14,085 bases of DNA from Candidatus Tenderia sp. (GTDB lineage Bacteria; Pseudomonadota; Gammaproteobacteria; Tenderiales; Tenderiaceae): contig JANOSY010000077.1 of NCBI GenBank assembly GCA_031416075.1, positions 1 through 14,085 on the forward strand, in the 5' to 3' direction. This document shows, one piece after another, positions 3,286 through 12,382 of the stretch. The notes below the pieces were generated by a model. That model was not told the origin of the DNA, ran no database searches, and saw only the letters and a program-made list of their open reading frames with translations. Made by a program: the position numbers and the translations under genes. How positions within the stretch are numbered: the stretch's first letter is position 1; every line of letters starts with the position of its first letter.

Positions 3286-3370
3286 TGTTGTCGCTGACCG
3301 AAAACTGACCCATTTATAGGCGTTGTGCCGATCCAAAATTGACCCAGGTGTTCTACTTGCCCTGCCTAAC
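3286..3370 (+). mobile_element. IS21-family left end
   Basis: Starts TGTTG at 3286. Subterminal repeats GCTGACCGAAAACTGACCCA (3293-3312) and GCCGATCCAAAATTGACCCA (3327-3346). Runs on into the istA RBS and start once the nested IS110 element is removed. Confidence 0.85.
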
Positions 3371-3480
3371 GAATGAAAGGGACTTCCCCGTCCCGAGGCG
3401 GCGGAGAAGTTTCCGCGAACGGCAACAAGTGCCATGATGGAATTTTGATCATTTCATCAACACCACAAAAGGGGAAGTCC

Positions 3481-4461
3481 ATGAACATTATCACCGTAGG
3501 AATCGATCTCGCCAAGAGCGTATTTGCCGTACATGGCGTCGATGATAGCGGCAAAGCCGCGCTGATCAAACCGAAAGTTTCACGCGCGGATTTGCTACCG
3601 CTGATCGCGCAACTGTCGCCGTGCCTGATCGGCATGGAAGCGTGTTCAGGTGCGCACCACTGGGCGCGGCTGTTCCGGCAGTATGGTCACACCGGCAAGC
3701 GCGGCAAGAACGATGCGGCGGATGCCGCCGCCATCTGCGAGGCGGTCACTCGCCCCACTATGCTGTTCGTCCCGGTCAAGGAAGAGCAACAACAGATCAT
3801 CCTGTGCCTGCACCGCACCCGGCAAGGGTTCGTCGAAGAGCGCACCGCCAGCTACAACCGCCTGCGCGGCCTGATCGCCGAGTTCGGCATCGTCCTGCCA
3901 CAGAAAGTCACCTGCCTGCGCCGCGAGATCGGCGCGCACCTGGAAGCCCTGCCGGGCTATGCCAACCTGTGCGTCGGTGACCTGCTGGCGCACGCCGATC
4001 AACTCGATGTGAAGATCGCCGAATACGAGCGCGCCATCGCCCAGGCAGCGCGTTACGATGCGCGCAGCCAACGGTTGATGACACTCCCCGGCATCGGCCC
4101 GGTCACCGCCAGTGCCATGCTGGCCAGCATCGGCGGCGGCCACGACTTCAAGAACGGACGCCAGGTGGCGGCGTGGATCGGACTGGTGCCGGGGCAATAC
4201 AGTAGCGGTGGCAAGGCGCGGTTGGGACGTATCACCAAGGCCGGAGATCATTACCTGCGCAGCCTGCTGATCATGGGCGCGCGAGCGATACTAAACAGTT
4301 TGGGCGACAAACAGGATCGCTTCAGCCGTTGGGCCAGATCATTACAGGAGCGGCGCGGCTACTGGCGCGCAGTGGTTGCCATCGCAGCGAAAAATGCGCG
4401 GCTGGCCTGGGCGGTGTTGAAGTACGGCGAAGATTTCAAACGGGAGCCGGGCAACATCTGA
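3481..4461 (+). CDS. IS110/IS1111 DEDD recombinase (326 aa), probable short in-frame deletion
   Basis: GIDLAK, MEACSGAHHWAR and KNDAADA form the DEDD tetrad; LPGIGP, GLVPGQYSSGGK (catalytic Ser loop), GDHYLR and AIAAKNAR are present. The ATG at 3481 follows AAGGGGAAG; the ORF-track start at 3373 lies inside the element end. Confidence 0.92.
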   Translation: MNIITVGIDLAKSVFAVHGVDDSGKAALIKPKVSRADLLPLIAQLSPCLIGMEACSGAHHWARLFRQYGHTGKRGKNDAADAAAICEAVTRPTMLFVPVKEEQQQIILCLHRTRQGFVEERTASYNRLRGLIAEFGIVLPQKVTCLRREIGAHLEALPGYANLCVGDLLAHADQLDVKIAEYERAIAQAARYDARSQRLMTLPGIGPVTASAMLASIGGGHDFKNGRQVAAWIGLVPGQYSSGGKARLGRITKAGDHYLRSLLIMGARAILNSLGDKQDRFSRWARSLQERRGYWRAVVAIAAKNARLAWAVLKYGEDFKREPGNI

Positions 4462-4549
4462 ACGAACAAAAAACCAAAACCGTCTGCCAACGAGAAGAGA
4501 CTCGAAAGGAATAGATACACCGCCGAGCGGCGATTAAAGAATCACCGAT

Positions 4550-4720
4550 GCACTGCCAGCGTTGATGTGAAGCGGGTTGGACCCGCGCCGGGAGAGCCTG
4601 ATCAACTTTATGGGGAGAAGTAGACCCCGACTAACGATTGAGGTCCCGGCGCGCGTCTTTCATCAGGGTCCGGGCGAATGCCCAATATGACCGTTTGTAG
4701 TTTAGCAGTCCTTCACCTTC
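4550..4720 (+). ncRNA. Putative bridge RNA / seekRNA of the IS1111 element (boundaries approximate)
   Basis: Perfect 10-bp stem CGCGCCGGGA (4584-4593) / TCCCGGCGCG (4644-4653) encloses an internal loop and a GGGG/CCCC hairpin. A second module has GGTC/GACC and GGGC/GCCC stems. Loop segments match target and donor junction sequences. Confidence 0.7.
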
Positions 4721-4842
4721 TTACACGATGCAAGCAGCGCGATTTGAAACGGAACAGAACAGGAAAAAACAATGAACTAAAAAAACATCAACAGCACTTG
4801 CGAATTTGGGGAAGCCCTTGTAGTTTAGGCAGGAGATAAAAG

Positions 4843-4908
4843 GTGATCACTATGGAAATGTTTGGAAAGATTCGACGGATGTATTTTCGCGACAATCTGT
4901 CGCTGCAT
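4843..4908 (+). pseudogene. istA: 5' stub of IS21-family transposase IstA
   Basis: RBS AGGAG (4831-4835) and GTG at 4843 give MITMEMFGKIRRMYFRDNLSLH, a typical IstA N-terminus. The sequence then switches abruptly to the opposite-strand deacetylase. Confidence 0.8.
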
Positions 4909-5268: not shown

Positions 5269-7722
5269 TTATTTGATACAGACAGTCCGTATTTGTGTCA
5301 GGTCGGTGTAGCCTTGCAGGATCTTTTCGATGCCATCCTGCTTCAGGGTACGCATGCCGTCATTGAGGGCCGCTTTCTGGATTTTGTAGGCAGGGGCGTG
5401 TTCGAGAATCATCTGTTTGATGTGTGGGGTGGCGATCAGGAGTTCGTGCAGGCCGATGCGGCCATGGTAACCGGTATCGTTACACTCTTTGCAGCCGGGT
5501 GCTTTATAGAGTGTGAGCTTGCCGTTTTTGCCAAACCGCCGTACCCACTGTTCTAGCTGTTGGTCGATAACGGCTTTTGTCTCTTCGGCAGTGGCGTTGT
5601 CGGGGATGAGTCCGGCGCAATACTCGTGGGCTAGCTGATGAATCTCACGGACGTTGGAGTGGTAGGGGCGCTTGCAGCTGGGGCAGAGTGTTTTGGCCAG
5701 CCGCTGGGCGAGTATGCCGACCAGGGCGTCGGCAAAATTAAACGGGTCCATGCCCATGTCGAGCAGTCGTGTGACACTTTCGGCGGCGCTGTTGGTATGC
5801 AGTGTTGAAAGTACCAAGTGGCCGGTGAGCGAGGCCTCAATGCCGACACCGGCGGTTTCGGCATCACGCATCTCACCGACCATGATGATATCGGGATCGG
5901 CGCGCAGAAAGGCCCGCATGGCGGTGGCAAAGTCGAGACCGATCTTGGGGTTGACCTGTACCTGACGCAGCCCGCTCTGGGTGATCTCGATGGGATCTTC
6001 TGCGGTCCAGATCTTGCGATCGGCATTATTCAAGTGGCCCAGTACGGAGTGCAAGGTGGTGGTTTTACCTGAGCCTGTGGGGCCACAGACGAGAAACAGG
6101 CCATAGGGCTGGGCGATGGCAGCGAGCAGTTTTTCAGCGTTGCTACTGCTCAGGCCGAGGGCGTTGATGGGGATGTTTTTACCGCTGCTGAGTATCCGCA
6201 TCACCACATCTTCCAGTCCGCCGGCGGTGGGCAGGATGGCAATGCGCAGCTCTATGTTGGCCGGGCCATACTGTTTGAAGTTGATTTTGCCATCCTGTGG
6301 TTTACGCCGCTCGGAGATGTCGAGCCGTGACATGACTTTGATACGTGAGATTAAGGCGTTGCGGTATTGGGGCGGGAACTGGTGGTAGACCGCCATGGTG
6401 CCATCTTTGCGAAAACGTACAACCACCTTTTTGTTGCCAGGGTTGGGTTCGATATGAATGTCGGAGACCCCTTGCTGGTAGGCGTCCATGATGATTTTGT
6501 TGATGATTTTAACAACGATATTGTCGGTGACTTCGCTCTCTTCGTGGCTGGTAAAACCATCACTCTCAAACTTGCCGCTGTTGAATGAGCTGTCATCCGG
6601 CTCATCCCCTTCTGGTTCGATGGCGTTCAGTATATCTTCTGATGAGTAGTAGAACTGTAACGCCCAGTTGATATCTTCGGTGATGCCGATGACAGGCTCT
6701 ATATATTTGTTGGTATGAAAACGCAGTGCATCCAAGGCCTCCCAATCCATTGGGTTTTCGATGGCCACCGCCAGCTTGCCCTCATATTGATAGAGCGGGA
6801 TCACCTTGTGTTTGAAGGCTAGGTTGGCCGGTATTTTGTGAATGATGTCCGGGCTGACTTTGAACTCCTGCAAATTAACAAAGGGGATGCCGAGTTTTTT
6901 GGCCAGCGCCTGCTGAATCTGTTCGCGGCTGACAATGCCGTTGTCGATCAGGATTTCGCCCAGCGGTTTGCGGCGCTCTTTTTTTTGCGTCATCAGGGCA
7001 TCTTCAAGCTGTAGCTCATCGATCAGATTTTCGCTGATCAAAATTTCGCCGAGTTTGAGGCTGGGCATCGCCTTCTGCTGTTTTAATGCCTTTTCCAGCT
7101 GGCTGGAGTCGACAATGGTGTGGCTGATCAGGTACTCCCCCAGGGGTTTGGTTCGGGCGCTGTGCTGGATCTCCAGTGCACTGGCAATCTCCTCACGAAC
7201 CACCCCTTGGTTCTTGATTAAAATCTCGCCAATGGGTTCGCCAATGATGTTGCTATGAATGGCGCTTTTGGGGATAAACAGATGTAGGTATTGGGGCAGG
7301 TACTGGTTGGTATTGTGCTGTTTAAACAGATGAATGCCCTGCTGATCGACCCGGCTGCCGTAGGTTTTACCACTAAACTTACTGTTGTCTTTGAAGGTGA
7401 TGGTGAACTCTTGTGGCTCGGTGGATGAGGTGATCGATTTTTTATTGCCCCAGCTGATGGCTGGGTCGGGCGTGAAGGGGATGGGTTGTGTGAGCTGCAT
7501 GGTTTTGATGTCGGCCATGTTCACCTCATGCAGTTCGCCACCCTCTTTATGGCTCAGGCCGATGATGGCGTTGCCAGTATCAAACCGGGTAAGTTTGCCC
7601 TCTATCTTTTTACCGCTCACTAAAAACAGAACAATGGCCGCATTATTAAAAGTGGCCACGTTTTCTGGATTTGAGAGTGGCGGGAGCGGCAGGATAATTT
7701 TATCATTCAGGTCCATCATCAT
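5269..7722 (-). CDS. GspE/PulE/PilB-family secretion or pilus ATPase with MshEN-like repeats and an N-terminal extension
   Basis: SDIHIEP, LDISERRKPQDG, Walker A GPTGSGKTT, TAEDPIE, Walker B IIMVGEMRD, His box GHLVLSTLHTNSA and CPSC..CKEC. AAGGA spacing favours the third ATG (7716) as start. Confidence 0.93.
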   Translation of the reverse strand: MMMDLNDKIILPLPPLSNPENVATFNNAAIVLFLVSGKKIEGKLTRFDTGNAIIGLSHKEGGELHEVNMADIKTMQLTQPIPFTPDPAISWGNKKSITSSTEPQEFTITFKDNSKFSGKTYGSRVDQQGIHLFKQHNTNQYLPQYLHLFIPKSAIHSNIIGEPIGEILIKNQGVVREEIASALEIQHSARTKPLGEYLISHTIVDSSQLEKALKQQKAMPSLKLGEILISENLIDELQLEDALMTQKKERRKPLGEILIDNGIVSREQIQQALAKKLGIPFVNLQEFKVSPDIIHKIPANLAFKHKVIPLYQYEGKLAVAIENPMDWEALDALRFHTNKYIEPVIGITEDINWALQFYYSSEDILNAIEPEGDEPDDSSFNSGKFESDGFTSHEESEVTDNIVVKIINKIIMDAYQQGVSDIHIEPNPGNKKVVVRFRKDGTMAVYHQFPPQYRNALISRIKVMSRLDISERRKPQDGKINFKQYGPANIELRIAILPTAGGLEDVVMRILSSGKNIPINALGLSSSNAEKLLAAIAQPYGLFLVCGPTGSGKTTTLHSVLGHLNNADRKIWTAEDPIEITQSGLRQVQVNPKIGLDFATAMRAFLRADPDIIMVGEMRDAETAGVGIEASLTGHLVLSTLHTNSAAESVTRLLDMGMDPFNFADALVGILAQRLAKTLCPSCKRPYHSNVREIHQLAHEYCAGLIPDNATAEETKAVIDQQLEQWVRRFGKNGKLTLYKAPGCKECNDTGYHGRIGLHELLIATPHIKQMILEHAPAYKIQKAALNDGMRTLKQDGIEKILQGYTDLTQIRTVCIK

Positions 7723-7892: not shown

Positions 7893-8861
7893 CTACTGCC
7901 CGCTAATGGTAAACGGATCGGCGTAAATCTCCTGGAAACCGGCACCGGCAAGAAAGCAGTCCCGTTTAGTGTTGTTCACCATCTCCGGATGGCCGCAGAG
8001 GTAGACACTCCAGCCGTTCAGTTTGGGAAACTGCTTCAGGGCAATATCATTGGCGCGGCCTGCTGTGATTCCCTGGCTATTGTTGCCGGAGAGGCAGGGG
8101 GTGTAGTGAAAATTGCTGTGTTGTCTGGCCAGTGCATTGAGTTCATCCACCAGATAGAGCCGTTCTGCTGAGCGACTGCCGTGGAAAAGGTGGATCTCCC
8201 CTTGGTGGTGCTGTTCCAGCGCGGCACGGGCGATCCCCCAGAGTGGTGCCAGACCGGAGCCGGTACCTATCAGTAACATATTTTGTTGTGGCTTCTCGCC
8301 TAGATAAAAACAGTCACCATGGGCACCATCAATGTTGAATTGGTCGCCAGGATTGATCTGATCGTGGAGCCATTGGCTCATCTGGCCATTGGGGAGGAGC
8401 TCTACATGTAGCTCCACCACCCCTTCGCTGGGCAGACTGGCAATGGAGTAGCTGCGGATCAAACCGTCGGGACGGTGCAGGTTGATAAACTGGCCTGCTT
8501 GAAACTCAAAGGGCGACGCGGGTTGTAAACGCAGGCGCAGGGTTTGGGGATTTAATTGGGTTTTACTGATAACGGTGACCAAAACCTTAGGTAGGGCCTC
8601 ATTGCCCGCCAAGGCAACCTGCATATCGGTTGTTGTTCTGCAGATGCAGGGCAGGAAAAAACCGCGATGTTGCAGCGTGGATTTTAGCCCTTTTTGTGAA
8701 TCTGCTGGGGGAGTCCCCTCAACTGCACGCATCATACAGGTCTGGCAGCTACCGCTGCGGCAGGAGGAGGGTGGCTCCGCACCCTGGCGTATCAGCGCCT
8801 CTAAAACAGTTTCATCAGCATGACAACTGTATGTAGTTCCAGAGAAGGTGATTGTTGCCAT
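7893..8861 (-). CDS. 2Fe-2S ferredoxin / FAD-NAD(P)H oxidoreductase (FNR-like)
   Basis: CRSGSCQTC...LPC plant-type 2Fe-2S motif; RSYS and GQMS (FAD); GTGSGLAP and YLCGHPEM (NAD). Confidence 0.93.
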   Translation of the reverse strand: MATITFSGTTYSCHADETVLEALIRQGAEPPSSCRSGSCQTCMMRAVEGTPPADSQKGLKSTLQHRGFFLPCICRTTTDMQVALAGNEALPKVLVTVISKTQLNPQTLRLRLQPASPFEFQAGQFINLHRPDGLIRSYSIASLPSEGVVELHVELLPNGQMSQWLHDQINPGDQFNIDGAHGDCFYLGEKPQQNMLLIGTGSGLAPLWGIARAALEQHHQGEIHLFHGSRSAERLYLVDELNALARQHSNFHYTPCLSGNNSQGITAGRANDIALKQFPKLNGWSVYLCGHPEMVNNTKRDCFLAGAGFQEIYADPFTISGQ

Positions 8862-9505: not shown

Positions 9506-11092
9506 ATGTTGACCATTATTGAACAACAGGCCAAACGACGCCGCACCTTTGCCATCATCTCCCACCCGGATGCCGGTAAAACCACATTGACTGAAAAGCT
9601 GTTGCTATTCGGGGGTGCGATCCAGATGGCCGGTACCGTCAAGGGGCGCAAGGCGGCACGTCACGCCACCTCCGACTGGATGGAGCTGGAGAAGCAGCGC
9701 GGCATCTCCATCACCACCTCGGTGATGCAGTTCCCCCATGGCGACAAGATCATCAACCTGCTCGATACCCCCGGCCACGAGGACTTTTCGGAAGATACCT
9801 ATCGCACCCTGACGGCGGTCGATTCGGCGCTGATGGTGATTGACAGCGCCAAGGGTGTTGAGGATCGCACCATCAAGCTGATGGAGGTGTGCCGTCTGCG
9901 CGATACACCGATCATCACCTTTATTAACAAGATGGACCGGGAAGGGCGTGAGCCGATCGATCTGCTCGATGAGGTGGAGGAGATCCTCAAGATCAAATGC
10001 GCCCCTATCACCTGGCCGATTGGCATGGGCAAAAACTTCAAGGGAGTGTTTCATCTCGCCGATGATCGCATCCATCTCTTCAGCTCCACCCATGGTGGCA
10101 AGATCATGGCGGGCGAGGAGATTAAAGGGTTGAACAATCCACGTCTTGATGAGTTGTGGGGTAGCCACATGGCGGCGCAGGTGCGTGAGGAGATCGAGCT
10201 GGTGCGTGGCGCCAGCCATGAGTTTGACCATGACGCCTATCTGCGGGGTGAGGTGACACCGGTCTTTTTTGGTTCCGCCATTAATAACTTTGGTATTAGG
10301 GAACTGCTCGACGCCTTTGCCGAGTGGGCACCAGAACCGCAGTCACGCGAAACCAAAACACGGGTGGTGGAGCCAAACGAAGAGAAGTTCACCGGTTTTG
10401 TCTTTAAGATTCAAGCTAACATGGACCCACAACATCGCGACCGTGTCGCCTTTCTGCGAGTCTGTTCCGGCAGTTACACCAAAGGCATGAAGGTGCGCCA
10501 TGTGCGCATCGCGCGTGACGTGCAGATCGCCAACGCCATCACCTTTATGGCCAGTGATCGTGAGAACATTGAAGAGGCGTTTCCTGGTGACATTATCGGC
10601 CTGCACAACCACGGCACCATCCAGATCGGCGATACCTTCAGCGTGGGTGAGGAGTTGAAATTTACCGGCATCCCCAACTTTGCCCCAGAGCTGTTCCGGC
10701 GCGCCCAGTTGAAAGACCCAATGAAGATGAAGGCGTTGCAAAAAGGGTTGCAGCAGTTGTGCGAAGAGGGGGCAACCCAGCTCTACAAACCGCTGATCAA
10801 CAATGAGCTGATCCTCGGTGCCGTCGGTGTATTGCAGTTCGAGGTGGTGGCTCATCGCCTGCAGGGTGAATACAAAGTTGAGTGTGTCTTTGAACCGGTG
10901 CAGGTCTCAACCGCGCGCTGGGTGATCTGCAAGGATGAGAAAAAACTCGCCGAGTTTAAACGCAAGGCCGAGGATAATCTTGCTATCGACGGTGCCGGAC
11001 AACTGGTCTACATCGCCCCGACACGGGTTAACTTGCAGCTGGCGATGGAGCGCTATCCGGATGTGGAGTTTGTGTCGACACGTGAGCACTAA
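9506..11092 (+). CDS. prfC: Peptide chain release factor 3
   Basis: [72 protein letters not shown] and C-terminal TREH; 528 aa. Confidence 0.99.
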
Positions 11093-11165: not shown

Positions 11166-11401
11166 GGGTTAAGTAGAGTGTAGTGAGCTGCGAATAGAGT
11201 CGTTGTGTTGGATAAAAACCATACATGACGATGCCTGTTAGATAGTCATCCCAATAGATGTTGTTATTTTCCGTTCCATATTGAACTATAGCGTGTGATC
11301 CAGTAACCACCGTAGAGCGGAGGGGTCTTGGATTGTGCAGAACTGATGGGGCCGTGACCAGTAGGGTTGCGGATCAATGCAATCTTCGGGGACAACAATC
11401 T

Positions 11402-12382
11402 ATGAAAGCGATTATGTATGAACGATATGGGCCACCTGAGGTGCTCCAATTGCGGGAGATTGAAAAACCGTCCCCCAAGGATAATGAAGTTTTAATTAAA
11501 ATATGTGCAACGACAGTGACATCTGGCGACTGGCGGGTGCGAAGTCTCACCGTGCCCGTTGGCTTTAGGCTCATCATGCGTTTGGTGTTTGGTATATCAA
11601 AACCAAAACAACCGATACTCGGCACAGAGTTGGCTGGGGTGGTTGAAACGATTGGTAAAGAGGTGAAAAAATTTAAAGTAGGTGATCAGGTTTTTGCGTT
11701 CAATGATGCGGCAATGGGGTGTTATGCCGAGTATAAATGCATGGCAGAAGATGGTGCGATTGCATTAAAACCACCCAGCCTAACCTATGGTGAAGCCGCC
11801 GCGCTCTCTTTTGGCGGAACAACGGCGCTGGATTTTTTTAGAAGAGCAAAACTTCAGAGGGATGAAAGAGTCCTCGTTAATGGTGCTTCTGGCGGGGTAG
11901 GTACGGCTGCGGTGCAGCTTGCCAGACACTTCGGTGCAGAGGTGACCGGAGTGTGTAGTACTTCTAACGTGGAGTTGGTGAGAGCTTTGGGGGCCAGCCA
12001 TGTGATTGATTATACCCAGGCAGATTTCACACAGAATGGTGAGGCCTATGATCTTATTGTGGATACTGCTGGCTCGGCCCCGTTCTCTCGCTGCAATGGG
12101 TCGTTGAAGAGTGGAGGACGGCTGCTGATGGTGTTAGCTGGATTGCCAGAGATGCTTCGAGCGCCATGGGTGTCGATGACAAGCAGTAAAAAAATCATCG
12201 CCGGACCAGCATCCGCATGCGTAGACGATTTGCATTTTCTCGCGGGGCTGGCGGAGGCGGGGGAATTTAAACCGGTGGTTGATCGGTGTTATCCGTTTGA
12301 GCAGATTGTTGAGGCCCACCGTTACGTTGATGCTGGGCATAAGAGGGGCAATGTCATTATATCTCTTGAGAAGGGAGTCTGA
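11402..12382 (+). CDS. MDR-superfamily NAD(P)-dependent alcohol dehydrogenase / quinone oxidoreductase-like protein
   Basis: MKAIMYERYGPPEVL start, ILGTELAGVV, FKVGDQVF, NGASGGVGTAAVQLA and GHKRGNVII. The structural-Zn Cys cluster is absent. ATG 11402 is preferred over the ORF-track start at 11333. Confidence 0.92.
   Translation: MKAIMYERYGPPEVLQLREIEKPSPKDNEVLIKICATTVTSGDWRVRSLTVPVGFRLIMRLVFGISKPKQPILGTELAGVVETIGKEVKKFKVGDQVFAFNDAAMGCYAEYKCMAEDGAIALKPPSLTYGEAAALSFGGTTALDFFRRAKLQRDERVLVNGASGGVGTAAVQLARHFGAEVTGVCSTSNVELVRALGASHVIDYTQADFTQNGEAYDLIVDTAGSAPFSRCNGSLKSGGRLLMVLAGLPEMLRAPWVSMTSSKKIIAGPASACVDDLHFLAGLAEAGEFKPVVDRCYPFEQIVEAHRYVDAGHKRGNVIISLEKGV

Follow-up and report, generated by a model that had tools for sequence, protein, structure and literature searches.

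The window (the whole stretch of DNA that was analysed, 14,085 nucleotides (nt) of contig JANOSY010000077.1, assembly GCA_031416075.1, Candidatus Tenderia sp.) contains an IS1111-family insertion sequence (IS) of 1.45 kb at 3372-4823, and we predict that the non-coding region (NCR) downstream of its recombinase gene encodes a guide RNA of the seekRNA or bridge RNA type. The limits of the IS are known because another contig of the same genome (G000:C83, hereafter C83) carries the uninterrupted site, ...CCTGCCTAAC-G-TTTAGGCAGG..., and the filled and empty sites differ by the IS only. One G is common to both junctions, and the comparison reveals no target duplication. The features of the element and its flanks are:

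3372-4823, + strand: IS1111-family IS, 1452 bp with the shared G counted at the right end (equally 3371-4822); its ends are kept in 80 related loci.
3366-3371, + strand: left target half CTAACG, in the flank; present in the empty site and identical to the guide at 4631-4636.
3377-3389, + strand: left subterminal inverted repeat AAGGGACTTCCCC, with the 5-nt extension AATGA (3372-3376) outside it; conserved in relatives.
3481-4461, + strand: DEDD recombinase gene, 326 amino acids (aa), domains PF01548 and PF02371, with a 45-bp in-frame deletion between 3693 and 3694.
4798-4823, + strand: right end, made up of TTGCGA (4798-4803), a 17-nt spacer holding the right subterminal repeat (4808-4819), and TAG (4821-4823).
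4824-4907, + strand: right part of a disrupted IS21-like left end, with its first open reading frame (ORF) starting at 4852; the left part lies at about 3287-3371, and the whole is colinear with C83.

The defining features of the IS1111 family were taken from the accounts of Siddiquee et al. 2024 (PMC11187229) and Durrant et al. 2024, and include a DEDD recombinase of 330-350 aa with RuvC-like N-terminal and PF02371 C-terminal domains, subterminal repeats of 7-17 bp, and short terminal extensions. The element has a DEDD recombinase, subterminal repeats that are kept in relatives, terminal extensions of 5 nt (left) and 4 nt (right) outside these repeats, a longer NCR downstream of the gene (about 360 nt, 4462-4823) than upstream (109 nt, 3372-3480), and no target duplication. 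Upon circularisation, TAG at 4821-4823 would abut AAT at 3372-3374 to form a -10-like hexamer, which may be part of a promoter with TTGCGA. A promoter formed at the circle junction is described for ISEc11 (Siddiquee 2024, PMC11187229).

The recombinase matches PF02371 (E 4.5e-28) and PF01548 (E 2.1e-10). Alignment with four relatives, which have about 340 aa, indicates that 15 residues (VKLMAPKFVAPYRMS in the relative L026) are missing between T71 and G72 of the assembled protein, immediately ahead of a conserved GKRGKNDAADA motif. The extra letters at 3691-3698 are present in relatives' contigs from public sequencing runs. A PDB sequence search with the L026 protein, which served solely to locate the deletion, matched ISCro4 (E 2.4e-12) and IS621 (E 8.5e-10), and alignment to the solved ISCro4 protein places the missing stretch in the RuvC-like domain, before the aspartate motif. 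Loss of recombinase activity is likely and, because the protein is without 15 conserved residues of its catalytic domain, the copy in the window is probably immobile by itself. A search of the same genome for a helper copy found only an N-terminally truncated IS110-family ORF of 264 aa (L002, G000:C45:105000-108178), with 69% identity over 179 nt.

We compared the element with about 85 related elements overall. A scan of one genome per species gave 80 loci with 70-87% protein identity, mostly from Gallionellaceae, Rhodocyclales, and other Betaproteobacteria. The IS ends are common to all 80, and nearly all have ..CTAACG to the left. Plasmid records gave more distant members with the same RNA scaffold and other flanks (ISPsy16 and members from Paraburkholderia, Cupriavidus, and Burkholderia glumae), and two that are still more distant, on an E. 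coli plasmid (L091) and a Klebsiella plasmid (L092, 49% protein identity). Among relatives, the NCR is about 80-94% conserved over its central 190 nt. The segments of the predicted RNA are:

4561-4717, + strand: conserved RNA scaffold of about 157 nt, probably the long form of a seekRNA or bridge RNA, defined by alignments and covariation.
4584-4653, + strand: predicted target-binding stem-loop, with an outer stem (4584-4593/4644-4653), a short helix (4596-4599/4641-4644), and an inner hairpin (4612-4615/4625-4628).
4601-4610, + strand: putative right-target guide ATCAACTTTA; in relatives its complement is found at about +1 to +11 in the right flank (top strand).
4631-4636, + strand: putative left-target guide CTAACG, in the same sense as the left flank; ends at the crossover G.
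4637-4641, + strand: post-crossover segment ATTGA, which resembles the IS left end AATGA; its last base is in the short helix.
4657-4663, + strand: putative right-donor guide CTTTCAT, the reverse complement of ATGAAAG (3373-3379) at the IS left end; 98% conserved.
4667-4692, + strand: hairpin between the donor guides (4667-4670/4689-4692 and 4672-4675/4680-4683), with compensatory changes, for example GC in 22 and AU in 6 sequences at one pair.
4695-4700, + strand: putative left-donor guide TTGTAG, in the same sense as the IS right end (4818-4823); 94-96% conserved.
4701-4705, + strand: TTTAG, conserved scaffold, equal to the right flank at 4824-4828 in the window's copy by chance.

The first-pass annotation of this DNA, made from the letters alone, had proposed an RNA-guided recombinase whose specificity is readable from strings in the NCR that copy or complement the two junctions. 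The strings are all present. CTAACGATTGA at 4631-4641 agrees with the left junction, CTAACGAATGA at 3366-3376, in 10 of 11 letters, TTGTAGTTTAG is found both at 4695-4705 and at the right junction (4818-4828), CTTTCAT is the reverse complement of ATGAAAG in the left end, and AAC lies at 4604-4606. Two of these matches are unexpected in the window: the 11-mer TTGTAGTTTAG occurs twice (0.00 expected, 200 shuffles), and the left-junction 11-mer with at most one mismatch also occurs twice (0.15 expected), a count reached by 1 of 200 shuffles. Exact 7-nt matches such as CTAACGA or CTTTCAT alone are within the chance range, and the 3-nt match AAC has no information alone. With the left-junction string, the only one tested in this way, 100 shuffles of the NCR gave longest common substrings of about 6 nt on average and 8-10 nt at most. 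Applied to single elements, the longest-common-substring test recovered the expected order of the four matches in 4 of 10 elements, a result partly lowered by an NCR interval that clipped one guide of L092; we relied on tests of aligned columns instead. The significance of the guide matches comes from the comparison of the family, not from the window's sequence alone.

The four guide segments occur in a fixed order (right-target, left-target, right-donor, left-donor) within a structure that covaries. The 10-bp stem reported by the first-pass annotation is real: in an alignment of 29 diverse sequences, five of the nine alignable pairs of the outer stem (4584-4592/4645-4653) have compensatory changes, with CG at one of them in 14 sequences and the reversed pair GC in 12. 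Covariation also extends to the inner hairpin, the short helix, and the hairpin at 4667-4692. Over the 33 named pairs in these 29 sequences, 97.3% of cells are paired and changes on both sides are found at 10 pairs; no shuffle of 500 reached the observed value, and slid controls were 36-50% paired. Conservation differs strongly along the RNA, with a mean column identity of 0.94-0.98 in the donor guides and 0.44 in the right-target guide, the least conserved segment. A scan of the whole window against Rfam (E <= 1) found no family within the IS, and three weak matches elsewhere that are far under the gathering scores. One of these is a partial match to hammerhead ribozyme HH9 at 206-240 (21.2 bits against a gathering score of 52, E 0.26), which is probably due to chance. 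Folding of the single sequence 4462-4830 was uninformative (z-score -0.79).

The alignment with homologous NCRs indicates that loop segments covary with the flanks of the insertion sites. As the first-pass annotation proposed, CTAACG appears to be the left half of the target guide: among 64 distinct insertions, the left-target 6-mer agrees with the left flank at 6/6 positions in 34, 5/6 in 19, 4/6 in 9, and 3/6 in 2. Four specificities other than CTAACG, in five loci (TAATCG in L081 and L087, TTAGCG, CCAAAG, and CCGCCG), match their own flanks at 6/6, as do the left guides of L010 (TCAACG) and L046 (CCAACG). In L082, where the guide reads CTGAG and the flank CTAGAG, the score of 3/6 in the fixed register is due to one indel. 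For the right-target guide, 55 distinct pairs of guide and own flank gave a mean match of 6.78 of 10, against 5.50 +/- 0.15 for permuted pairs, and 0 of 10,000 permutations reached the observed mean. In 44.5 of 54 sites the match is best in a register offset by 0 to +2 relative to the crossover G. The best fits are 10/10 in L057 and 9/10 in each of L081, L069, and L075, and ISPsy16 and L088 match over at least 9 consecutive letters.

Some distant relatives have changed their guides to fit other targets. Both target guides are altered in this way in ISPsy16/L085, L086, and L088, and the right guides of L089 and L090, for which there is no left flank, also fit changed targets. L081 and L087 have a changed left guide, with a right guide that fits at 9/10 in L081 and loosely in L087. 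We consider such independent changes a stronger argument than the permutation tests. The target guides thus seem to vary with the flanks and to track them, and they would read 6 nt of the left flank and about 10 nt of the right flank, the latter starting from +1 or +2. In the RNA, the top-strand match is 5' of the bottom-strand match, the order published for IS1111 seekRNAs. The L007-L012 copies have the left guide TCAACG; of the six distinct flanks tabulated, those of L007, L008, L011, and L012 read CTAACG (a 4/6 match), and L009, left out of the table as a duplicate key, is the same, showing that mismatch at -5 and -6 is tolerated. All six copies are on a single contig, grouped in two clusters, and an integron integrase gene (G001:C6:660934-661875) adjoins one of the clusters.

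CTTTCAT and TTGTAG, which the first-pass annotation had assigned as donor guides, are nearly invariant (94-98%), as are the IS ends, and for this reason most relatives are uninformative on donor pairing. Two distant relatives are informative. In L091 the right end reads ..CTTATAG and the internal segment TTATAG. In L092 the left end ATGGAAT is accompanied by an internal ATTCCAT, and ATCTATG occurs both at the right end and internally; the longest matches between its NCR and its junctions come in the same order as in the window, namely TTTATTCA (complement of the right junction), GCTTTGTT (left flank), ATTCCAT, and ATCTATG. This co-change of segments and ends supports a predicted pairing of the donor guides with the IS ends, with covariation from two relatives that is weaker than that of the target guides. 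Durrant 2024 describes donor-binding nucleotides in a multiloop for many IS1111 RNAs.

The usual target of the lineage may be one end of an integron attC site. When the empty sites are rebuilt, those of many relatives form long, imperfect hairpins with GCCTAAC at the start and its complement at the end. A strict test asked whether the 7 nt to the left of the crossover recur in inverted orientation 25-153 nt downstream; 18 of 48 sites passed, and a control motif passed in 8 of 48. Three copies in one genome share a contig with an integron integrase gene (TIGR02249, 490 bits; cut-off 265) and are 4-52 kb away from it. Because of this integrase and the hairpin sites, the lineage appears to behave like the attC-targeting IS1111 elements ISKpn4 and ISPst6. 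Blastn of the window's NCR scaffold against Klebsiella and Escherichia plasmids gave no match, and thus no sign that its RNA is homologous to those of ISKpn4 and ISPst6. Post and Hall in 2009 and Tetu and Holmes in 2008 are reportedly the works behind attC-targeting IS1111 members.

The window's own copy is inserted elsewhere, in a 21-nt hairpin at the left end of an IS21-like element, which is not an attC site. The hairpin appears to be a look-alike of attC that imitates the two core boxes of the attC consensus. In the window the IS21-like element is cut off after about 56 nt of its first ORF, and C83 (L003) has an uninterrupted IS21-like end with an IstB-like gene (PF01695, E 1.3e-48). Contigs from metatranscriptomes and metagenomes include variants of the empty hairpin in which the loop is T or TTTTA in place of the CG-containing loop. 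The left guide matches the window's site at 6/6. The right-target guide is identical in L021, L025, and L026, and it fits the attC-like flank of L026 at 7/10. L032, L033, L034, L074, and L080 likewise occupy sites whose left arm matches well and whose right arm matches poorly. A possible second match of the right guide about 14-26 nt downstream in the window's flank (ATAAA...TGATC) was seen by eye and is outside the register of the family.

Taken together, we predict that the 3' NCR (4462-4807) encodes the guide RNA of the element, at about 4561-4717, as a structured and bispecific RNA in two parts. In the target stem-loop, the 10-nt right-target guide on the 5' side would pair with the top strand to the right of the crossover, and CTAACG on the 3' side would pair with the bottom strand to the left of it. 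In the donor multiloop, CTTTCAT would pair with the IS left end and TTGTAG would match the IS right end, with the hairpin between them. A complex of recombinase and RNA would then join the circularised IS to the target and exchange strands at the single shared G, without duplication. The target of the lineage would be CTAACG and the variable sequence after it, apparently an attC end in many relatives, and the window's copy would be a half-matched insertion in the IS21-like hairpin, with a left guide of 6/6 and a poor right guide. We put the probability of this explanation as a whole, an IS1111-family IS with a 3' guide RNA that has two target and two donor guides, at roughly four in five.

Several observations weigh against it. 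At the window's site the right guide matches only 3/10 at the commonest register of the family and 4/10 at best. Only 18 of the 48 sites pass the strict attC-like test. The outer closing helix of the donor multiloop (4567-4571/4712-4716 and 4579-4582/4708-4711) is invariant or broken in the alignment and thus unsupported, and RNAalifold favours a pairing that buries CTTTCAT. The permutation statistics for guides and flanks ignore the kinship of the elements. According to Siddiquee 2024 (PMC11187229), ISEc11 could transpose with its short seekRNA, which comprises just the target part, and what the long form does is left open there; donor pairing in IS1111 would therefore rest on two covarying relatives and the prediction of Durrant. 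On the + strand, a sigma-70 scan gave no promoter-like match ahead of the RNA, and its sole + match (4744-4773) is 3' of the RNA; expression of the RNA would need read-through or the circle junction. The scan result agrees with co-transcription from a junction promoter or by read-through.

The first-pass annotation went further, with a target guide composed of CTAACG and AAC (pairing with GTT of the target) and with the 10/11 and 11/11 junction matches as a functional handshake, longer than that of IS621 and characteristic of the system. The strings exist, and the 11-mer is far beyond chance in the window. The 10-mer that contains AAC matches the site at 7/10 across the crossover, in a register shifted by about 5 nt. 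Among the 54 sites only three reach 7/10 in that register, the best register being offset 0 to +2 in most of them, and covariation defines the guide as the 10-mer at 4601-4610, so the proposed AAC guide is not upheld. On the left side of the handshake, the segment after CTAACG reads ATTGA in 24 of 56 related RNAs, AATGA (the exact IS end) in 22, and six other forms in 10. Because positions 2-3 vary among these RNAs, where the IS end is constant, the data appear to support a handshake of at most 1-2 nt; the handshake guides of IS621 are dinucleotides, which is about what our data allow. On the right side, TTGTAG stands as a putative guide, and the remaining five letters of the 11/11 match, TTTAG, belong to scaffold that is conserved irrespective of the flank; nearly all relatives read TTT or TAC there. 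The letters of the donor loop after the crossover do covary with the flank, weakly (1.96 of 4 against 1.75 +/- 0.08, reached by 88 of 10,000 permutations). Of 53 pairs, 81% agree at the first letter, since most flanks begin with T; at later letters the agreement is 30-43%. The contiguous post-crossover match in 61 sites is 0 nt in 10, 1 in 31, 2 in 9, 3 in 6, 4 in 4, and 5 in one, the window, so that 41 have 0-1 nt and the 5-nt run of the window is consistent with chance. We also considered that a long TTTAG match compensates for a poor right-guide match and found no trend (Spearman 0.04, p 0.78). The fuller version is therefore quite unlikely, and we read the long junction-like matches of the window's copy as probably guide plus scaffold plus coincidence. 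The core of the first-pass proposal, an RNA-guided recombinase readable from its sequence, is retained; its AAC guide, its extended handshake, and the flank part of the 11/11 match are not.

It is unlikely, though not as strained, that the target stem-loop is the only guide, with the protein recognising the ends through the subterminal repeats and with CTTTCAT and TTGTAG kept for RNA processing, as scaffold, or for protein binding. This would suit the sufficiency of the short ISEc11 seekRNA and the statement in Siddiquee 2024 that the role of the long form and the binding of the ends are unknown. Across about 85 relatives there is hardly any variation in the donor-like segments or in the ends, so that pairing and plain conservation are mostly indistinguishable there, and a lone 7-nt match is within chance. 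The co-changes set out above decide us against it, with TTATAG both at the right end and internally in L091 and the two matched changes of L092 (ATGGAAT/ATTCCAT and ATCTATG/ATCTATG) in the order of the window, as does the multiloop placement of donor-binding nucleotides in Durrant 2024. It is very improbable that the strings resembling the junctions have no RNA function and were left behind by nested or tandem IS ends or arose by chance. Such debris does occur: second partial copies of the guide-RNA region are found in L040 (at about 2600 and 3075) and L056 (at about 1 and 2585), and the right end is repeated in tandem directly after the IS in L035 and L042 (GGGGAAGCCCTTGTAG repeated). These may be products of aberrant or donor-donor recombination. 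The positions of the strings in the RNA are constant within a structure that covaries, two of the strings read in reverse-complement sense, and the flanks that they follow differ from element to element.

We therefore keep the explanation with two target and two donor guides, in which the window's copy is best read as a half-matched insertion, as suggested by one site and a few similar ones. A tentative extension, which may or may not hold, is that the left guide of the lineage is fixed on the CTAACG core of attC, that its 10-nt right guide diversifies rapidly after the variable parts of host attC sites, and that copies can also land where only the left guide and the crossover match, with the window's copy a possible natural half-match insertion of the IS1111 type. 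IS621 can insert at sites that match the core and one arm only, as reported in a bioRxiv preprint (10.64898/2026.08.31.748434). The window's site is similar in that it matches the left arm at 6/6 and the right arm at 3-4/10. It differs in that the IS621 work was done in vitro and in E. coli, and the window has a natural IS1111 element, interpreted from one site and a few others.

Contigs of relatives from two metatranscriptome runs of one study (X17 and X19) cover 4542-4703 and 4542-4757 with at least 85% likeness. This demonstrates presence in an RNA library only and is no proof of transcription. Uncovered bins (4758-4811) and differences in depth were not counted as evidence, and runs X15 and X16 are probably DNA.

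Among known systems, attC sites are targeted by the IS1111 members ISKpn4, ISPst6, and ISPa25 (Siddiquee et al. 2024, PMC11187229). The window's lineage shares with them the family, an RNA in the 3' NCR, a possible attC-end target, a top-strand match 5' of the bottom-strand match, and copies in an integron cassette array; the window's copy differs in being outside attC. ISEc11 is of the same family, with the same order of target matches and no duplication, and its seekRNA has a short form of 82 nt and a long form of 154 nt, similar in size to the stem-loop of about 70 nt and the conserved RNA of about 157 nt found here. It has a different target, and the junction promoter that it has is in our case read from sequence alone; here, donor-like segments in the 3' half of the RNA covary with the ends in two relatives. 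ISPsy16, named from the annotation of Pseudomonas plasmids, has 67% DNA identity to the window's element over 93% of the IS, with the same scaffold and ends. Unlike the window, it has the left guide TTAGCG and the right guide AAAAATCGTA, which fit its own flanks.

The bridge RNA of IS621, as described in Durrant 2024, Hiraizumi 2024, and a 2026 excision paper, is also bispecific, with left and right guides for both target and donor. Its left guides have the sense of the top strand, its right guides are complementary, and short handshake letters follow the crossover, all as predicted here. Unlike in IS621, where the RNA is 5' of the gene, the window's RNA is 3' of it, the order of guides within the loop is reversed, the donor guides are in a multiloop, the crossover overlap is a single G and not a CT core, and the right-target guide has 10 nt and not 4. 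A literature search of limited scope turned up no publication that deals with this betaproteobacterial lineage or reports an extended handshake for IS1111 elements.

The genes that follow in the window appear to be unrelated to the IS. Based on Pfam matches, they encode a T2SSE/MshEN-type secretion ATPase (5269-7722, - strand), a ferredoxin-NAD(P) reductase-like protein (7893-8861, - strand), release factor RF3 (9506-11092, + strand), and a zinc-type alcohol dehydrogenase (11333-12382, + strand).

The system is the seekRNA or bridge RNA system published in 2024, and the window adds a member to it, not a mechanism. Roughly 60 natural insertions of a single lineage allow a detailed look at the guide positions that are read and at the mismatch that is tolerated. 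The covariation of donor-like segments of the long RNA with the IS ends bears on a point that was left open for IS1111 elements. The window's copy and similar sites are natural candidates for half-matched, off-target insertion, which is relevant to the design of bridge-recombinase editors.

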